A program made the translations under genes and the position numbers. A model generated the notes under the pieces. That model ran no database searches. It had not been told where the DNA came from and saw only the letters and a list, made by a program, of their open reading frames with translations. Positions 36,610 through 42,180 of a stretch of DNA of 64,000 nucleotides are shown here, piece after piece. Origin of the DNA: an uncultured Actinomycetota bacterium (GTDB lineage Bacteria > Actinomycetota > Actinomycetes > JAHEKZ01); assembly GCA_963829525.1 (NCBI GenBank), contig CAWHIJ010000003.1:992001-1056000 (forward strand). Reading direction: 5' to 3'. The stretch's first letter is position 1, and each line of letters starts with the position of its first letter.

Positions 36610-36623
36610 CCATCCCGGTGTTG
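36596..36623 (+). promoter_or_regulatory. Autoregulatory SigR-type promoter
   Basis: GGAAT(36596-600)-N19-GTTG(36620-23), 8 nt before ATG 36632. Confidence 0.6.
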
Positions 36624-36631
36624 TGCGTGAC

Positions 36632-37282
36632 ATGACCGTGGCCACTGACCTCGCGCTACCCTTGCGCCCAATGAGCCAAGAAGATGCACCCACGGAATCC
36701 GTTGACGAGCGCGCCGCAAGGTTCGAGCGCGATGCCCTGCCGTTCCTCGACCAGTTGTACGGCGCAGCTCTGCGCATGACGCGCAACGCCAGTGATGCCG
36801 AGGACCTCGTCCAAGAGACCTACGCCAAGGCCTTTGCTGCATTCCACCAGTACAAGGACGGCACCAACCTCAAGGCCTGGCTCTACCGCATTCTCACCAA
36901 CACCTTCATCAACACGTACCGCAAGAAGCAGCGCGAGCCCCAGCAGAGCGGCGCGGACGAGATCGAGGACTGGCAGTTGGCGCGTGCTGAGTCGCATACC
37001 TCACGTGGACTCCGCTCGGCTGAGGTCGAGGCACTCGACCGGCTGCCTGACTCCGACGTCAAGGACGCTCTGGCTGCTCTGTCTGAGGACTTCCGGATGG
37101 CGGTCTACCTGGCCGACGTCGAGGGATTTGCCTACAAGGAGATCGCCGAGATCATGGACACACCCGTGGGAACAGTCATGTCCCGGTTGCACCGCGGCCG
37201 CCGTCAACTGCGGGGGATGCTCGAGGAGTACGCCAAGGAGCGAGGGTTTGTTCCTGCTGGAACCGGCGGTGACCTCACATGA
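36632..37282 (+). CDS. sigR: ECF sigma factor SigR/SigH
   Basis: [41 protein letters not shown] and [11 protein letters not shown]; alternative start ATG 36671. Confidence 0.95.
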
Positions 37283-37563
37283 CCACCCACGATGCCCGCG
37301 GTCATGACCTCGATTGCTCAGACGTAGTTGAGGCCGTCTACCTCTACATTGACGGTGAGCTCAGCGCCGATGTCATCGACAACATCCGCAGCCATCTCGA
37401 CGACTGCTCGCCGTGCCTCCAGGAGTACGGGATCGAGCAGGAGGTGAAGGCGTTGATCGCACGCAGTTGTTGCGAGACGGCGCCAGATGCACTGCGGGCG
37501 TCGATCGTTTCACGCCTAGAGATCGTGAGAACCGAGATGACCATCAAGTTCGACCGCGACTGA
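37279..37563 (+). CDS. rsrA: Zinc-binding anti-sigma factor RsrA/RshA
   Basis: [14 protein letters not shown] motif; ATGA overlap with sigR. Confidence 0.93.
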
Positions 37564-37607: not shown

Positions 37608-37682
37608 TCAGGACGTGGGGCGGTTGCCGTGGTTGGCCTTCTTCTTCTTGCGGTCGCGACGCTTGCGGGCGCGCTTGCTCAT
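37608..37682 (-). CDS. 50S ribosomal protein bL37 (actinobacterial, 24 aa)
   Basis: Not in the ORF track. MSKRARKRRDRKKKKANHGNRPTS with RBS AGGAG matches the bL37 pattern (KRGRKKRDRK..KANHGKRP) and its position next to rshA. Confidence 0.88.
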   Translation of the reverse strand: MSKRARKRRDRKKKKANHGNRPTS

Positions 37683-37753: not shown

Positions 37754-38449
37754 TCAGCCCAATCGGCGGTTGACCGCCGCCAGCACTGCCCTTGCCACGG
37801 CATCGGTCTCGTCCCCCCGGATCACCGCGCTACCTGCCAGCGACTGAGCGCCGAGCCTCGGAACAGACAAGGTGATGACCACGAGGGCGACGGCATGAGT
37901 GCCCGTGTCGACGACGGCTGAGCTTTCGACAGCAGCCGGGAGCCCGAGCAGCTCGTCGAGCGCGCTGAGGGTCGCCGACGCCACCAGACGTGGGCGGGCG
38001 CTTGCCGCGGCTGCGCCCCGTTCGATGCCCACGAATGTGTCGCCGTCGAGCTCGAGTCGTACCTCGACCTCGATCTCCGACCCGGTACTGCGTATTCCGA
38101 TCTCGCTGATCATCGGACGCGCTTGCGCCTCGATCTCCTCGAGGATGTCCGCCGCAGGTGCCGGACCCGCTTCGGACATGTCGATGACGGTTGAGCCAGC
38201 ATCCTCAGTGGATGACTCGTCCTCGATCTGGACGACACTGACGATCCGGTGGTCGAGGTCGATGTCGAACTGGGCCATTGCCAACGACTGAACGTCGCGG
38301 ACAACCTGTTTCGCGGGCTTACCGGGGGCAGCTAGGACGTGCACCTCGGTCGGCTGTGCGTGGGCGTCGGTCACCACGCTGACCGCTCTGACTCCGGGGA
38401 TCTGCCGGATCGACTCTTCGAGGTCCGGAAGTAGGCGCAGGCTCGGCAT
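37754..38449 (-). CDS. Conserved hypothetical two-domain protein divergent from the HD-GYP locus
   Basis: EVHVLA..KPAKQVVRDVQS..DLDHRIVSVVQI, then an acidic linker, then a C-terminal AVARAVLAAVNRR; host-like codon usage. Confidence 0.8.
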   Translation of the reverse strand: MPSLRLLPDLEESIRQIPGVRAVSVVTDAHAQPTEVHVLAAPGKPAKQVVRDVQSLAMAQFDIDLDHRIVSVVQIEDESSTEDAGSTVIDMSEAGPAPAADILEEIEAQARPMISEIGIRSTGSEIEVEVRLELDGDTFVGIERGAAAASARPRLVASATLSALDELLGLPAAVESSAVVDTGTHAVALVVITLSVPRLGAQSLAGSAVIRGDETDAVARAVLAAVNRRLG

Positions 38450-38511
38450 AAAGGTGAGTCTCTCTCGGGTCAGGGGCACGGTGGCGTCACAGCTTCACGA
38501 TCGGCGGGCAG

Positions 38512-38931
38512 TCATGGAAGGGTCCCACGGTGGGCGGGGTCGGGCAGCGGTCGTAGTCCAGCCACGAGCAACCGGTAGGGCTGAAGCTGGCGGACAGGGG
38601 CCGGCTCGGCTTGGTCGATGACGTCCGCCGGGTGTTGGTCATCGGCCCACACAGGGGCCACCGGGGGTTCAATCAGGGCCTGTTCGGCCGCGTTGGCTTG
38701 GAGTGCGACCAGGGCAGGTGGGAGAACGGCTTCGGCGTGTTCGACGATGGCGCGTTCGCCGGCTCGCTGGAGCCAGCGAAGCCGTCGAGCGAGGTCGTCG
38801 GAGATGCTGCCGGCCGCAACGGCCTCGGTGAGGGCCGCGTCGAAGGCCCGTGTCGGCCCCGATCCCCGAAGATCGAGCACCGCGGCGACCAGATCGGCGT
38901 AGGCCGTGAGACGGCTTGGCTCAGCGTTCAC
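38512..38931 (-). CDS. Hypothetical protein
   Basis: 139-aa ORF with RBS GGAGGGGG; helical N-terminus, Pro-rich C-terminus. Confidence 0.7.
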   Translation of the reverse strand: MNAEPSRLTAYADLVAAVLDLRGSGPTRAFDAALTEAVAAGSISDDLARRLRWLQRAGERAIVEHAEAVLPPALVALQANAAEQALIEPPVAPVWADDQHPADVIDQAEPAPVRQLQPYRLLVAGLRPLPDPAHRGTLP

Positions 38932-39060
38932 GGTCCCCCTCCCCAGTGGTCGTCTACCCCCCGGGGAGCAGGTTACGGCGTACTGGTGGGGCCGCGAGGA
39001 GGAGTCCGATGACTACATGCTCCAAACGGGTTCAACATGGTTCTTTCTAGCCCTCCGCGA

Positions 39061-39076
39061 TAGCCTAATTGGGCTA
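39061..39076. promoter_or_regulatory. Palindromic site in the divergent promoter region
   Basis: TAGCC-TAATTG-GGCTA. Confidence 0.35.
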
Positions 39077-39191
39077 ATCATGGTCAAGGTTCGGCCTCAG
39101 AGGCCCCTGCTCCTTGACGTTCACACCTGTCACACCCTTCACTTCCGTTTCGGTGGTCTTTTCTTTTCTGAGCGGCCATCAGACAACTGAA

Positions 39192-39432
39192 GAGGGTGGA
39201 TCGGGGATCGGCAGCGGAAGTGCTGCTTTATCTCGTGTCGTTCCTTTGGGAGCACACACCTTGAGCGGAGCGGATGCCGCATGAGCCATAGCGGGGCTCG
39301 TGACATCTCAGGCAAGGGGTGATTCCCACACAATGAGCAAGCTTGTTTCCGCGGTTGAGCGTTTCCTTTCCAGCGGTGCTGGTTGGTCATGGCACTAGAA
39401 ACCGTTGCGCTGCCGATCCCCGATCCCCCCTC
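39192..39432. repeat. Long-range inverted repeat enclosing the small peptide ORF
   Basis: GGATCGGGGATCGGCAGCG (39198-39216) is the exact reverse complement of CGCTGCCGATCCCCGATCC (39408-39426). After one mismatch it extends via GAGGG (39192-96)/CCCTC (39428-32). Confidence 0.9.
39333..39398 (+). CDS. Putative 21-aa signalling peptide MSKLVSAVERFLSSGAGWSWH
   Basis: Read manually from ATG 39333 to TAG 39398; RBS AAGGGGTGA at 39314-39322; same strand as, and 58 nt upstream of, the first HD-GYP gene. Confidence 0.65.
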   Translation: MSKLVSAVERFLSSGAGWSWH

Positions 39433-39456
39433 ACCCTTCCCCCAGGAGTCGACCGC

Positions 39457-40896
39457 ATGCTGCAGCTGCGTCCAGCAGCGAAGGTGTACCTGACCGTCGT
39501 TACGGTCGGTGCCCTCGCTGCGCTGATCGCTGCCACGGTGCAGATAGTCGAAAATCCCGAGCACCTCAGTGTGCTGTTGGTGCTGGCCCCAATCTTCATT
39601 CTGTCGATCTACCTGAAGTCGCGGATGACGCAACAGGTAGACCTGTCGGCGAACGTGCCGATCTTGATTGCCGCCTACCTGATCGGTGGGTGGCAAGTTG
39701 CTTGTCTTGTCGGAGTCTCAGCTGTCGTGCTTGATCGGCGCAAGGCCCTGTCGCGCGTTCTCTTCAACAACGCGCAATGGGTGCTGATGGGCTTGGCTGG
39801 CGGGCTGATCTACGACGCGATGGGCGGCATCTCGATGCAGATGCTGCCCGGTGGAGGATTCCCTACGTATCTGCTTGGCGCGATCGTCGTCTCGATCGTG
39901 GCCGTGATCGGCGTCAACGCTGCGCTCATGCTCGGCATCTTGGCGACTCAGGAACAGATCAAGGCCAGCACGATCTGGCGAAACATGGTGCTCACCTCTG
40001 TTGGTCCCTACTTCGCCTACATGCTGCTGGGCTTGCTGATGGCCGTCCTCTGGTCGATCGGCGGAGGCTTTGCGGCTGCCCTTGTCCTCCTTCCACTGCT
40101 TGTCGCCCGCCGTGCCTGGAACCAGTACGCAGAGCAACGTGAGGCGTACGAGTCGACGATCAGGGCGCTGGTGCAGGCGGTGGAGACCAAGGACCACTAC
40201 ACGCGCGGTCACAGCGAGCGGGTGTCGCGCGCCTCGGTGCTGATCGCGCGAATCCTTAACATGCGCGAAGATCGCGTCGAGGCGCTGCGGTACGCGGGCA
40301 TCCTGCACGATGTCGGCAAGCTGGGCGTGCCAACCAGGGTGCTGCAGAAGACCGGACCGCTGAGCGACATGGAGTTCGCCGCCATCAAGCGCCACCCCAG
40401 GAACGGTACCGAGATGGTCCGCGGAATCGCCTTCCTCGAGGAGGCCTACAACGGCATCATGCATCACCACGAGCGGCTCGACGGTCGTGGCTACCCCTTG
40501 GGTCTGTCCGGAAACGACATCCCTGAGTTTGCCAGGATCATTGCGGTTGCCGACGCGTTCGACTCCATGACGTCGACGCGTTCCTACCGAGGAGCGCGAG
40601 ACGTGTCCGAAGCCCTGAGAGAGCTTGAGAACTGTGCGGGAACGCAGTTCGACCACGCCATGGTCCAGGCGTTGATCACGGCGCTGCAACGTGATCCGTG
40701 GACGACGGTGGCTCCATCTGAGAAGCGTCAGGTAGACGTCGAGCTGGGGTCGCCAACGTTCGACCACGACGACCCGGCGGCGAACCTGCCGACCGAGCCC
40801 GATGTCCAGGTGGCCGCCGAGGCGGCAGCCTCGGAGGCGCTCAACGCGCGAATGCTGCACAGGCGCGACGTCTTGCGTCGAGGTGATTGGTCATGA
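39457..40896 (+). CDS. Membrane-bound HD-GYP c-di-GMP phosphodiesterase (HdgA-like)
   Basis: About 7 N-terminal TM segments; KDHYTRGHSERV, LHDVGK, HHERLDGRGYP and VADAFDSMTS.R.YR are intact; RBS AGGAG. Position after sigR-rsrA matches Streptomyces hdgA as I recall it. Confidence 0.88.
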   Translation: MLQLRPAAKVYLTVVTVGALAALIAATVQIVENPEHLSVLLVLAPIFILSIYLKSRMTQQVDLSANVPILIAAYLIGGWQVACLVGVSAVVLDRRKALSRVLFNNAQWVLMGLAGGLIYDAMGGISMQMLPGGGFPTYLLGAIVVSIVAVIGVNAALMLGILATQEQIKASTIWRNMVLTSVGPYFAYMLLGLLMAVLWSIGGGFAAALVLLPLLVARRAWNQYAEQREAYESTIRALVQAVETKDHYTRGHSERVSRASVLIARILNMREDRVEALRYAGILHDVGKLGVPTRVLQKTGPLSDMEFAAIKRHPRNGTEMVRGIAFLEEAYNGIMHHHERLDGRGYPLGLSGNDIPEFARIIAVADAFDSMTSTRSYRGARDVSEALRELENCAGTQFDHAMVQALITALQRDPWTTVAPSEKRQVDVELGSPTFDHDDPAANLPTEPDVQVAAEAAASEALNARMLHRRDVLRRGDWS

Positions 40897-42180
40897 GACG
40901 AACGTGGGCTGATGAGTTCTCCGGTGGCTCGGTGCTGGTTGTTGTCGGTGGCCTGCTGCTTGCCGTCGCCGGCAGTTGCCGCCACAGCGTCCCAACCGGT
41001 TCTCGACCCGCAGATAGCTCTGGCGTTCGGTGCCTTGATCGCAGTTGGTGAGCTGGTCAGGGTGAACCTCCCCGGTGACCGTTCGGCTGCGCCGATCGGG
41101 GCGGCCGGCGGACTGGCCTACGCCTTGCTCGGCGACTTCCCTCAGGCGGGACCTGACGATACGACCTACGGGGTACTCCAAGTCGTGGCGGTCACCACGA
41201 TCGCCATCCTCGTCGGGGCCGTGCCGCACATGGCAGTCGGGCAGCCGCCGCGCCTTGAGTCGCTGGCCCGCCGCGTGCTGATCGTCGGGTTTGCCGCTCT
41301 GCTCTTCCGTCCGCTCTACACCAACGGAAACCTCGATGGGCTCGCTGACCCGAAGTGGCAGCTCCCGGCGTTCATGCTCGCCATCGTGCTCCTCTGCGGC
41401 TTGGTCGACGCGCTGCTGGCGGCCCTTGCCCGCTCAGGTCGAGAGCGCAGTCCGTTCACGGCCGCCGCACGCGACGAGTTCGGAGCGCTGCTCGGGATCG
41501 GTTCGGCGATCGGCGCCACCGGCGTCCTCATCGCGCTGGCTGCCGGGGTCATGGGTTACTGGGCGCTCCCCCTGTTCGCGCTTCCGCTGCTCGTGGCGCA
41601 GTTCTCGTTCCGTCGCTACGCGAGCATCCGGGCCACCTACGACCAGACGATCCAGGCGCTCTCCCGAGTCACCGAGGTGGGCGGCTACACCGAGACGGGG
41701 CATTCCCAACGGGTGGCCCAGTTGTCGGTCGCCGTTGGACGCGAGATGGGGCTCTCTGAGGACGACATCAAGGACCTGAAGTACGCAGCTCTGATGCACG
41801 ACATCGGGCAGCTCTCGCTCACCGACCCGATCTCCGGCGGTGCCACGACGCTGATCGCCCGTGACGAGCAGCGACGCATTGCGGCGTACGGGGCTGAGGT
41901 GATCCGGCAGAGCGGGATGGACCGGGTGGCGCACATCGTCGAGCAGCAGACCGAGCCTTTCCGGCGTCCTGGGCAGCCGTTCGACGCCAACATCCCCGTG
42001 GCCAGCCGCATCATCCGGGTGGCCAACGCTTACGACGACTTCGCTGGCGGATCGATGGAGAGCGTGCAGCGCATGTACGCCCTCGGCCGACTGCGCGAAG
42101 GAATGGCTGAGGAGTACGACCCCACGGTGGTCGACATCGCCAGCCGGGTTGTCGAGCGCACCATGCTGGTGGATGTCTGA
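40893..42180 (+). CDS. Membrane-bound degenerate HD-GYP protein (HdgB-like); probable +1 frameshift near 40971
   Basis: ATGA overlap at 40893 gives MRRTWADEFSGGSVLVVVGGLLLAVA, which joins ORF 40912-42180 if one G is removed. GHSQRV and MHDIGQ are present, but HHExxDGxGYP is replaced by QQTEPFRRPGQP. Confidence 0.82.

Follow-up and report, generated by a model that had tools for sequence, protein, structure and literature searches.

A conserved and covarying long-range RNA helix in the 5' leader of hdgA-hdgB-type operons of Actinomycetota

In the genome of an uncultured Actinomycetota bacterium of the lineage JAHEKZ01, an inverted repeat lies directly upstream of two tandem genes for membrane-bound HD-GYP proteins, here called hdgA and hdgB after their Streptomyces venezuelae counterparts. 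We have analysed the repeat within a stretch of 64,000 nucleotides (nt), hereafter the window (contig CAWHIJ010000003.1 of assembly GCA_963829525.1, positions 992,001 to 1,056,000, position 1 being its first letter). In the RNA the two arms of the repeat pair with each other over a long range to form a conserved helix, P1, in the 5' leader of the hdgA-hdgB operon for membrane HD-GYP phosphodiesterases of cyclic di-GMP, and this identification is confirmed by the comparison of related leaders. P1 encloses a short open reading frame (sORF) that has its own ribosome-binding site (RBS). Little is known about the regulation of HD-GYP phosphodiesterases, and the leader would offer a handle on it as well as on the membrane sensor domain of HdgA. 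To the catalogue of Actinomycetota it would add a widespread, strongly covarying candidate cis-regulatory RNA and also a family of conserved peptides, 19-25 residues long, that escape gene callers.

A repeat search in the window returns arms of 28 nt (39192-39219 and 39405-39432) that are 93% complementary and have 185 nt between them. Their core is an exact 19-mer, GGATCGGGGATCGGCAGCG, found on the plus strand at 39198-39216 and on the minus strand at 39408-39426, i.e., the two copies are perfect reverse complements, as the initial annotation of this DNA had described. At a tolerance of three mismatches the 19-mer has no further match in the window; 0.12 matches per window would be expected by chance, and two or more occurred in 1 of 100 shuffles. 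The 311-nt leader was also searched against the whole 2.96-Mb genome, where its own locus is the sole match, and it is thus not a dispersed repeat. What places the repeat far beyond chance is that compensatory changes preserve its pairing in the relatives. Folded as RNA, the plus strand of 39180-39460 reaches -121.3 kcal/mol (z = -3.81, with none of 200 shuffles as good), and the minus strand of the same region has z = -2.76. The other elements that had been read from the sequence are also present: the peptide reading frame with its own RBS between the arms (ATG at 39333, stop codon at 39396-39398, 21 amino acids), the hairpin GAGCC-N7-GGCTC at 39283-39299 by reading, and the RBS of the HD-GYP gene just past the 3' arm at 39444 (AGGAG at 39444-39448, ATG at 39457). 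Of the two CACCCTT tracts the downstream one is at 39432-39438 as described, whereas the upstream one begins at 39133 (39133-39139) and not at 39134. The alternative pairings proposed for these tracts gained no support: the upstream tract lies in a promoter-like box, the register shift with the downstream tract is only 75% complementary, and the alignments showed no compensatory change in favour of either of them.

Of 13 genomes from the same genus, 12 conserve the intergenic region, as do all six genomes from other genera of the family. Weaker DNA matches are found in 4 of 21 genomes searched from other families, and these four belong to four different families. From a plain MAFFT alignment of 20 leaders, RNAalifold predicts P1 de novo. 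Counted on this alignment, 94.4% of the cells of the structure can pair, vs 31-51% when the partner is shifted by 1-3 columns, and 10 of the 24 P1 pairs have changed on both sides. For instance, one pair is GC in 14 leaders, AU in 5 and UA in 1, and another is GC in 12 and CG in 7. The covariation score of the alignment was reached by none of 500 shuffles. An ungapped stem scan, which does not depend on any alignment, finds a stem between the 5' and the 3' side that scores above all 20 shuffles in every one of the 46 motif-carrying leaders. These stems are 18-52 nt long, at least 24 nt in all but one leader, and in many leaders (e.g., L069, L107, L108 and L115) the arms are different throughout. 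The earlier idea that the mRNA folds into a long closing stem is thus strongly supported, and the covariation analysis of orthologous leaders that had been suggested as its check gives a stem that is conserved and covarying across many families.

A covariance model of the leader, R1 (277 positions, 49 pairs), scores the window with 292 bits on the plus strand and 38 bits on the minus strand. Among the 54 forward matches of R1, 16 of the 21 pairs in the upper part of P1 covary; this 54-leader alignment was fitted to R1 and leans towards the modelled structure. At several positions a U-G pair replaces U-A or C-G, in 13 and 14 of the 54 sequences. On the opposite strand these pairs would be A-C mismatches, therefore the functional strand is the sense strand of hdgA and the element works as RNA. 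The covariation of P1 spans genera, families and classes of Actinomycetota.

Over 52 leaders the arms of P1 have a median length of 30.5 nt (range 24-42). In the window the helix has 19 exact base pairs, or 25-28 with one mismatch, and reaches the duplex length that RNase III needs (about 20-22 bp or longer). The median arm is far longer than the closing stem of a riboswitch and within the size need of RNase III. In the upper half of P1 (GGGAUCGGCAGC / GCUGCCGAUCCC) the sequence itself is conserved in the 54 leaders, beyond what pairing asks for. About 15 nt separate the base of the helix from the hdgA Shine-Dalgarno (SD) sequence downstream of it, and the distance from the end of the 3' arm to the end of the SD, mostly 14-18 nt (range 5-26, 52 leaders), is the most constant spacing in the leader.

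A scripted search finds the sORF at the same place in 51 of the 54 leaders, and the three leaders without it are failures of the regular expression or possible frame problems. Its length is 19-25 codons in 51 of 52 leaders, with a single outlier of 13 codons. The entropy at the three codon positions is 0.74, 0.60 and 1.16, i.e., the third position is the most variable, and 35% of the codon differences are synonymous in frame, vs 12% and 10% in the other two frames. From this clear coding signature the sORF appears to be under coding selection over its whole length, and the signature and the recurrence of the frame together point to a short translated leader frame of the kind used in leader attenuation. 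The predicted peptides begin with M-x-K-I, and nearly all have a Trp 0-3 residues before the stop, with W-x-W in most. Their middle part is variable, amphipathic in the family of the window (MSKLVSAVERFLSSGAGWSWH) and plainly hydrophobic in other lineages, e.g., MKKIAAVFGGLVALFVSAGAGWNWG and MKTKILAVLATLYVLVLAGGAGWGW. The peptide family has no match in Pfam or NCBIfam, and none of eight peptides looked up exactly in a collection of 15 billion proteins is present there. A complex prediction for HdgA residues 1-240 with the 32-residue reading frame at 39300-39395 scores 0.08 against a mark of 0.32 and speaks neither for nor against binding.

The elements inside and around P1 are listed in Table 1. 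Next to the helices, the most striking parts of the leader are its invariant nucleotides. At least 97% conservation in the 54 leaders is seen for the AGCGGAGCGGAU tract, which is unpaired in the model, for the AGCGG loop of P3, for GUGAC, and for ACAAC within GACAACUG. The AGCGGAGCGGAU tract may be where a ligand, a protein or a tertiary interaction makes contact. The stem of P3 exists in many variants, and 5 of its 8 pairs covary in the 20-leader MAFFT alignment and 7 of 8 in the model-fitted one. P4 pairs in 85.8% of the cells of the 20-leader alignment with one-sided changes only, and in other lineages AAUCC...GGGGUU is found at its position instead. In the fold of the window the GGGG core of the sORF SD has a probability of 0.01-0.16 of being unpaired. 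This SD and a following UGAU tract are conserved as AAGGGGUGAU, which presumably is an unusually long Shine-Dalgarno sequence, judged by the 3' end of 16S rRNA.

Table 1. Features of the hdgA leader and its surroundings in the window.
Feature	Position	Strand	Remarks
ECF-type (extracytoplasmic function) sigma factor gene and zf-HC2 (ZAS) anti-sigma gene	36623-37563	+	overlap of 4 nt; about 1.9 kb upstream of the leader
bL37, mycobacterial type, 24-codon reading frame MSKRARKRRDRKKKKANHGNRPTS	37608-37682	-	NCBIfam NF047428, E = 1.8e-10, above cut-off
Two reading frames, 241 and 139 amino acids	37754-38479, 38512-38931	-	transcribed away from hdgA; no Pfam or NCBIfam match
Promoter-like box	39114-39143	+	by reading; TTGACG 39114-39119, 18-nt spacer, TTCACT 39138-39143
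GACAACUG, 5' strand of P0	39182-39189	+	pairs GAC/GUC and CUG/CAG with the hdgA SD region, 2x2 loop
5' arm of P1	39192-39219	+	G-rich; exact core 39198-39216; covarying
P2, variable hairpin	39235-39257	+	from minimum free energy fold prediction; length and sequence vary among relatives
Invariant tract AGCGGAGCGGAU	39264-39275	+	unpaired in model; at least 97% conserved in 54 leaders
P3 hairpin	39280-39302	+	covarying 8-bp stem; loop ends in invariant AGCGG 39290-39294
GUGAC	39300-39304	+	invariant (at least 97%, 54 leaders); overlaps P3
P4 hairpin	39304-39321	+	anti-SD-like CAUCUC pairs with sORF SD AAGGGGUG (39314-39321)
sORF, 21 codons and stop, MSKLVSAVERFLSSGAGWSWH	39333-39398	+	contains small hairpin P5 (39370-39382)
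3' arm of P1	39405-39432	+	C-rich; exact core 39408-39426; begins 6-9 nt past the sORF stop, depending on the pairing extent counted
C-rich linker ACCCUUCCCC, P1 to hdgA RBS	39433-39442	+	unpaired in model; CUUCCCC conserved within the family
hdgA SD CAGGAGUC, 3' strand of P0	39443-39450	+	outer P0 pair covaries
hdgA-type gene	39457-40896	+	membrane N-terminal domain and HD-GYP domain; intact HD, HHERLDGRGYP; Pfam HD_5 E = 2.8e-39
hdgB-type gene	40912-42180	+	second membrane HD-GYP paralogue without GYP motif; Pfam HD_5 E = 8.5e-14

How widespread the leader is was estimated by a core pattern seeded on the AGCGGAGCGGAU tract (AGCGGAGCGRA-N13-18-AGCGG-N6-9-GAC). It occurs in 92 of 401 genomes sampled from the class, vs 6 for a control with the reversed pattern. 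All eight matches in genus g33 (genomes of 6-10 Mb with one shared sequence) were counted as false, since the one that was read, L134 in genome G171, is the start of a PBP-like reading frame; the match in G316 is doubtful. After these removals, the core motif is present in about 83 of the 401 genomes, from 21 families, a count that includes the unpublished genome G050, the sole match of its family. In L134, positions 1220-1260, the conserved AGCGGAGCGGATCGGACCCATGGGA..AGCGGAAGAGAGAC spans the start of the PBP-like frame of 763 amino acids, and the likeness of this stretch to the leader tract is probably due to chance.

The gene association of the leader is constant. At 26 of 30 new loci the downstream reading frame matches the HD-GYP hidden Markov model, the script-picked frames of the other four having no match. 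Among 151 genomes searched, R1 finds five more leaders in four genomes classed as 'same phylum', all five followed by an HD-GYP gene. One genome from another class of the phylum, G462, has two copies of leader plus HD-GYP gene (L142 and L146), and their sORFs, MKARIFAVFAAIASLFLVAGAFGSSRP and MKARIIAIITALASLFLVAGAYGSARP respectively, contain no Trp. The 80 closest HD-GYP loci of named records include 12 with a leader detected by nhmmer. Another two of the 80, L027 from a metagenome-assembled genome (MAG) of Sporichthyaceae and L028 from a Streptomycetales MAG, have only a homologue of the sORF (MKKIVTLVEQILDSSTPTRWQ and MHRLTAILEQFLSSGCTTHWT) upstream of the HD-GYP gene, each with a second W-rich sORF at the locus, and at both loci the RNA motif was undetected by nhmmer and R1. 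A different sORF is found at five Nocardiopsis- or Lipingzhangella-type loci of the 80, and nothing was found at the remaining 61, which are mostly Streptosporangiales.

These five loci (L062, L067, L078, L081 and L082, from Nocardiopsis, Lipingzhangella and a MAG) carry a different leader about 55 nt upstream of the hdgA homologues. It encodes a hydrophobic sORF of 26-28 codons ending in (N/S/T)GWSWW*, or KWDWW* in L062. All five have the upstream elements GCCGTTAAACTGG..CCATATCCACCGTATGGG..AATTCGC; the four Nocardiopsis-like loci also conserve AACGGAATCGATGAAATCATGACAGTTCGGTCGG after the sORF, which is not present in Lipingzhangella L078. R1 does not match any of the five.

The leader appears to be a control module of many actinobacteria that has not been described. 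The Rfam 15 search of the window positions 38000-40500 at E <=10 gives three matches at chance level (13.8-16.4 bits vs gathering scores of 33-93), and six other leaders have no match at the gathering threshold. No description of the leader or the peptide was found in the literature searched, with most subscription journals outside the search. Among the families that could be tested, the element belongs to no described one.

RNA libraries give some information on transcripts from this region. Of the sampled words of 39000-39900, 5-12% occur in each of 24 metatranscriptome runs, which come from 18 studies, and contigs were mapped from four of these runs (soil, sediment, riverine and freshwater). 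Four contigs of 152-218 nt cover 39214-39386, 39175-39388, 39219-39399 and 39222-39373, i.e., three of them end at 39214-39222 and all four at 39373-39399, which are the inner edges of the arms. One more divergent contig covers 39363-39523. The flanks 39000-39174 and 39527-39900 have no contig cover in the four runs, which is not used as evidence. Contigs cannot show true RNA ends, and the libraries may contain DNA and have no DNA control; therefore we read the clustered contig ends as no more than a weak hint that a discrete leader RNA exists. In one run, X2, two short contigs contain sequence that we take to be sequencing adapter, adjoining 39334 (the start of the sORF) and 39426-39428 (in the lower 3' arm). 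These junctions indicate short inserts that end there, and the ends could be natural RNA ends or chance.

We suggest, tentatively and with slightly less than even confidence, that P1 gates the translation of hdgA and that its cleavage by RNase III yields an sORF RNA that accumulates separately. P1 and a basal helix, P0 (GACAACUG with CAGGAGUC), would keep the ribosome-binding region of hdgA closed in cis, so that little HdgA would be made. As a near-perfect duplex of more than 22 bp, P1 would be a substrate of RNase III, and the cut would divide the transcript into a stable sORF RNA and the hdgA message. This could allow an excess of micropeptide over enzyme, and it would take from the hdgA RBS the strand with which it pairs. 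This proposal can draw on the fixed spacing of the helix base and on the hdgA GGAG core, which is mostly paired in the ensemble (probability of being unpaired 0.01-0.34). It can also draw on the switch of the outer P0 pair, G-C in the genus of the window and C-G in its sister genera. Over the 54 leaders this outermost pair is GC in 31, CG in 11, GU in 5, UA in 1 and unpaired in 6; within the family, the inner pairs of P0 reach 98% pairing. Poor expression of HdgA in S. venezuelae, as reported in 10.1101/2021.11.05.467447, would fit as well.

Several observations weigh against this gating and cleavage model. P0 is weak, 6 bp with an internal loop, and 81-88% paired over the 54 leaders, and by eye its pairing with the hdgA SD is not kept in leaders of other classes. 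P1 has its base at about position -25 relative to the hdgA AUG, where a 30S footprint ends, so that P1 alone need not block initiation, and in-silico removal of the 5' arm does not free the hdgA SD. Neither recognition by RNase III nor occlusion of the RBS explains the sequence conservation of upper P1, and the model assigns no role to GUGAC and the AGCGG tracts, invariant as they are. Cleavage of P1 by RNase III is itself a proposal, for which the ends of the RNA contigs would be a weak hint. The initial annotation had likened the stem to an RNase III processing stalk that might release a separate peptide RNA in excess; contigs lying inside the arms in four studies hint weakly at this.

By analogy, the element may work like those leader devices in which long-range pairing and a short reading frame govern a downstream RBS, and it also looks like an RNase III stalk. 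The stalks of rRNA operons, the phage lambda N leader and the E. coli rnc and pnp leaders have the same long, near-perfect duplex flanking a functional RNA, and cleavage would likewise free the enclosed RNA from the downstream message and could alter access to the RBS. However, the present helix encloses a 190-nt leader with a micro-ORF instead of rRNA, and different families share the sequence of its upper part, a conservation that known RNase III sites can do without. The ermC/ermB, cat/cmlA, mifM-yidC2 and secM-secA leaders resemble it in having a short reading frame upstream of a gene with a structured RBS region, and a peptide that is conserved near its C-terminus. In those systems the sequestering partner lies inside or just after the reading frame, whereas here it is about 250 nt upstream, 5' of the sORF, and for a third of the leaders the sORF stop is too distant to reach the helix. 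In the 'Min Jou' interaction of MS2 and Qbeta, long-range pairing across an upstream cistron also controls downstream initiation, but in MS2 one strand lies inside the translated coat gene and is opened by translation, while here both arms are mostly outside the sORF. The mgtL-mgtA and tnaC-tnaA leaders share a very short reading frame, a long structured leader, Trp near the end and a C-rich downstream stretch. The present leader differs from them in that no trp, tna or Mg2+ genes follow and no conserved alternative structure was found, and the conserved residues of TnaC are not those of the sORF. Finally, the GEMM-I and GEMM-II riboswitches for cyclic di-GMP (c-di-GMP), which often precede GGDEF, EAL or HD-GYP genes, are also structured, conserved leaders ahead of a gene for c-di-GMP turnover. 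They differ in their conserved nucleotides and architecture, no Rfam match to them exists even at the permissive threshold above, and the leader described here holds a reading frame that is predicted to be translated.

The coding selection across the entire sORF fits also with a ribosome-coupled unfolding of the helix, which we regard as rather unlikely. Translation of the sORF, or a pause at its C-terminal Trp or stop codons, would melt the top of P1 and expose the hdgA RBS, and hdgA translation would then report the translation of the sORF or a signal sensed by the nascent peptide. The narrow range of sORF lengths means that the peptide would fit wholly in the exit tunnel at termination, a Trp stands close to the stop in nearly all leaders, and unrelated sORFs ending in GWSWW* are found in the same place before hdgA in Nocardiopsis and Lipingzhangella. 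The gap between the sORF stop and the 3' arm has a median of 8 nt and is at most 10 nt in 34 of 52 leaders, with an overlap in 5; however, it is 13-44 nt in 18 of the 52, out of reach of the ribosome. Moreover, when 39381-39411 is forced to be unpaired, at least 15 bp of P1 and the lower helix remain and the accessibility of the hdgA SD is unchanged. Both G462 leaders encode Trp-less sORFs, and the last Trp is followed by a variable number of residues, 0 to 3. The coupling of peptide translation to HD-GYP expression that the initial annotation offered as a choice is thus favoured by the geometry of some leaders and opposed by that of others, and a simulated ribosome at the stop codon hardly opens the stem. 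A sensor, like a riboswitch or bound by a protein, would instead make use of what lies inside the helix: P1 would close a junction of P2, AGCGGAGCGGAU and the AGCGG loop of P3 that binds a small molecule or a protein, and binding would control the SD-sequestering hairpin P4 and hence the expression of the sORF and hdgA. P1 and P3 covary around invariant and largely unpaired nucleotides that cluster at the junction and in the P3 loop, including GUGAC, which is the usual signature of an aptamer. The sORF SD sits in a hairpin directly after this conserved core, the leader keeps a constant association with one type of gene, and a nucleotide messenger such as c-di-GMP would be a sensible ligand ahead of a phosphodiesterase gene. 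Still, there is no Rfam match and no indication of a ligand, a closing helix of 25-40 bp around a translated reading frame is untypical of riboswitch aptamers, and the three copies of AGCGG resemble a binding pocket less than they do a repeated protein-binding word. A sensor of this kind is in our judgement unlikely.

The composition of the region between the start of the 3' arm and hdgA (39405-39456, 52% C and 19% G) would also suit Rho-dependent attenuation, in which the C-rich 3' arm and linker are a Rho loading site masked by P1, so that P1 would decide on transcription into hdgA. The C-rich 3' arm and the G-rich 5' arm are conserved, and leaders that combine an sORF, alternative structures and Rho exist, e.g., mgtL-mgtA. 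Against this, the 5' arm has no conserved alternative partner, the candidate GAUUCCC not being kept in other lineages, and the C-rich stretch is only about 50 nt long; we consider the explanation improbable. Finally, near-perfect inverted repeats flanking a segment of about 190 bp could mark an element at the DNA level, i.e., an invertible switch, a miniature mobile element or a cruciform, for which we see next to no chance. The several genomic copies expected of a mobile element like a MITE (miniature inverted-repeat transposable element) were not found in the 2.96-Mb genome, and in every leader examined the element stands in one place and one orientation with respect to hdgA. Compensatory changes in the arms pass through G-U intermediates that would be mismatched on the other strand, the RNA contigs contain no joints, and no recombinase is encoded among the eight neighbouring reading frames scanned. 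That a DNA inversion switch is less likely, as had been supposed, is borne out by these strand-specific pairs, by the strand preference of R1 and by the single orientation.

It can also be speculated, though we find it rather doubtful, that the leader is a new two-part c-di-GMP signalling module consisting of an AGCGG junction sensor RNA and a membrane-active micropeptide. The AGCGG-rich junction closed by P1 would be a new riboswitch or the target of a dedicated RNA-binding protein. The micropeptide, hydrophobic in many lineages and with Trp-x-Trp at its end as an interface anchor, would be a ligand or a subunit of the intramembrane MASE9 domain of HdgA, and processing of P1 would set a high ratio of peptide to enzyme.

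Several alternative structures in the leader were considered. The W-x-W at the end of most sORFs recalls a trpL-type attenuator, but the downstream genes encode HD-GYP proteins and the only terminator-like site in the leader, at 39209-39225, is weak. At this site, flagged by a consensus scan, the top of the 5' arm on the plus strand can fold locally into the hairpin GCAGC-GGAAGU-GCUGC, with CUUUAUCU after it. This hairpin forms in the fold without the 3' arm and could, by this modelling, compete with P1 during transcription; its partner strand is not conserved in sister genomes. Two further pairings were rejected. One, GGGGAUC of the 5' arm with GAUUCCC after the sORF SD, arises in the fold without the 3' arm and is not conserved in other lineages. 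The other, AGCGGAGCGG with the first codons of the sORF, was proposed by RNAalifold and is not kept where the codons differ, e.g., in L020.

The genes that follow the leader were assigned to hdgA and hdgB by the architecture described for S. venezuelae. There, according to PMC6205966, an intact and a degenerate membrane HD-GYP gene stand in tandem, and the gene pair of the window has this same arrangement: HHERLDGRGYP is present in the first gene only, and the hdgB-type translation contains no HHExxDGxGYP. The N-terminus of HdgA is a MASE9 membrane sensor domain according to 10.1101/2021.11.05.467447. Among named records the nearest is a MAG labelled 'Candidatus Nanopelagicales bacterium' with 85% protein identity, and homologues in Streptacidiphilus are 49-55% identical.

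Upstream, a gap of 525 nt separates the neighbouring reading frames from the first HD-GYP gene. The sigma/anti-sigma gene pair at 36623-37563 is presumably SigR/RsrA- or SigH/RshA-like, and we take its place upstream of the hdgA leader to be as in the gene order of Streptomyces. The leader transcript probably starts in the region of the promoter-like box, whose function is read from its sequence and its recurrence. At least 32 of the 54 leaders, from several families, are preceded at 30-120 nt by a similar box with a spacer of 17-18 nt. A scan with the sigma-70 consensus does not find a promoter at 39114-39143, and the -10-like hexamer of the box is without the A at position 2 that we presume the housekeeping sigma factor to expect. 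An alternative sigma factor may use the box as its promoter. The box of this window also has three TCACnnC repeats with a spacing of 9 bp.

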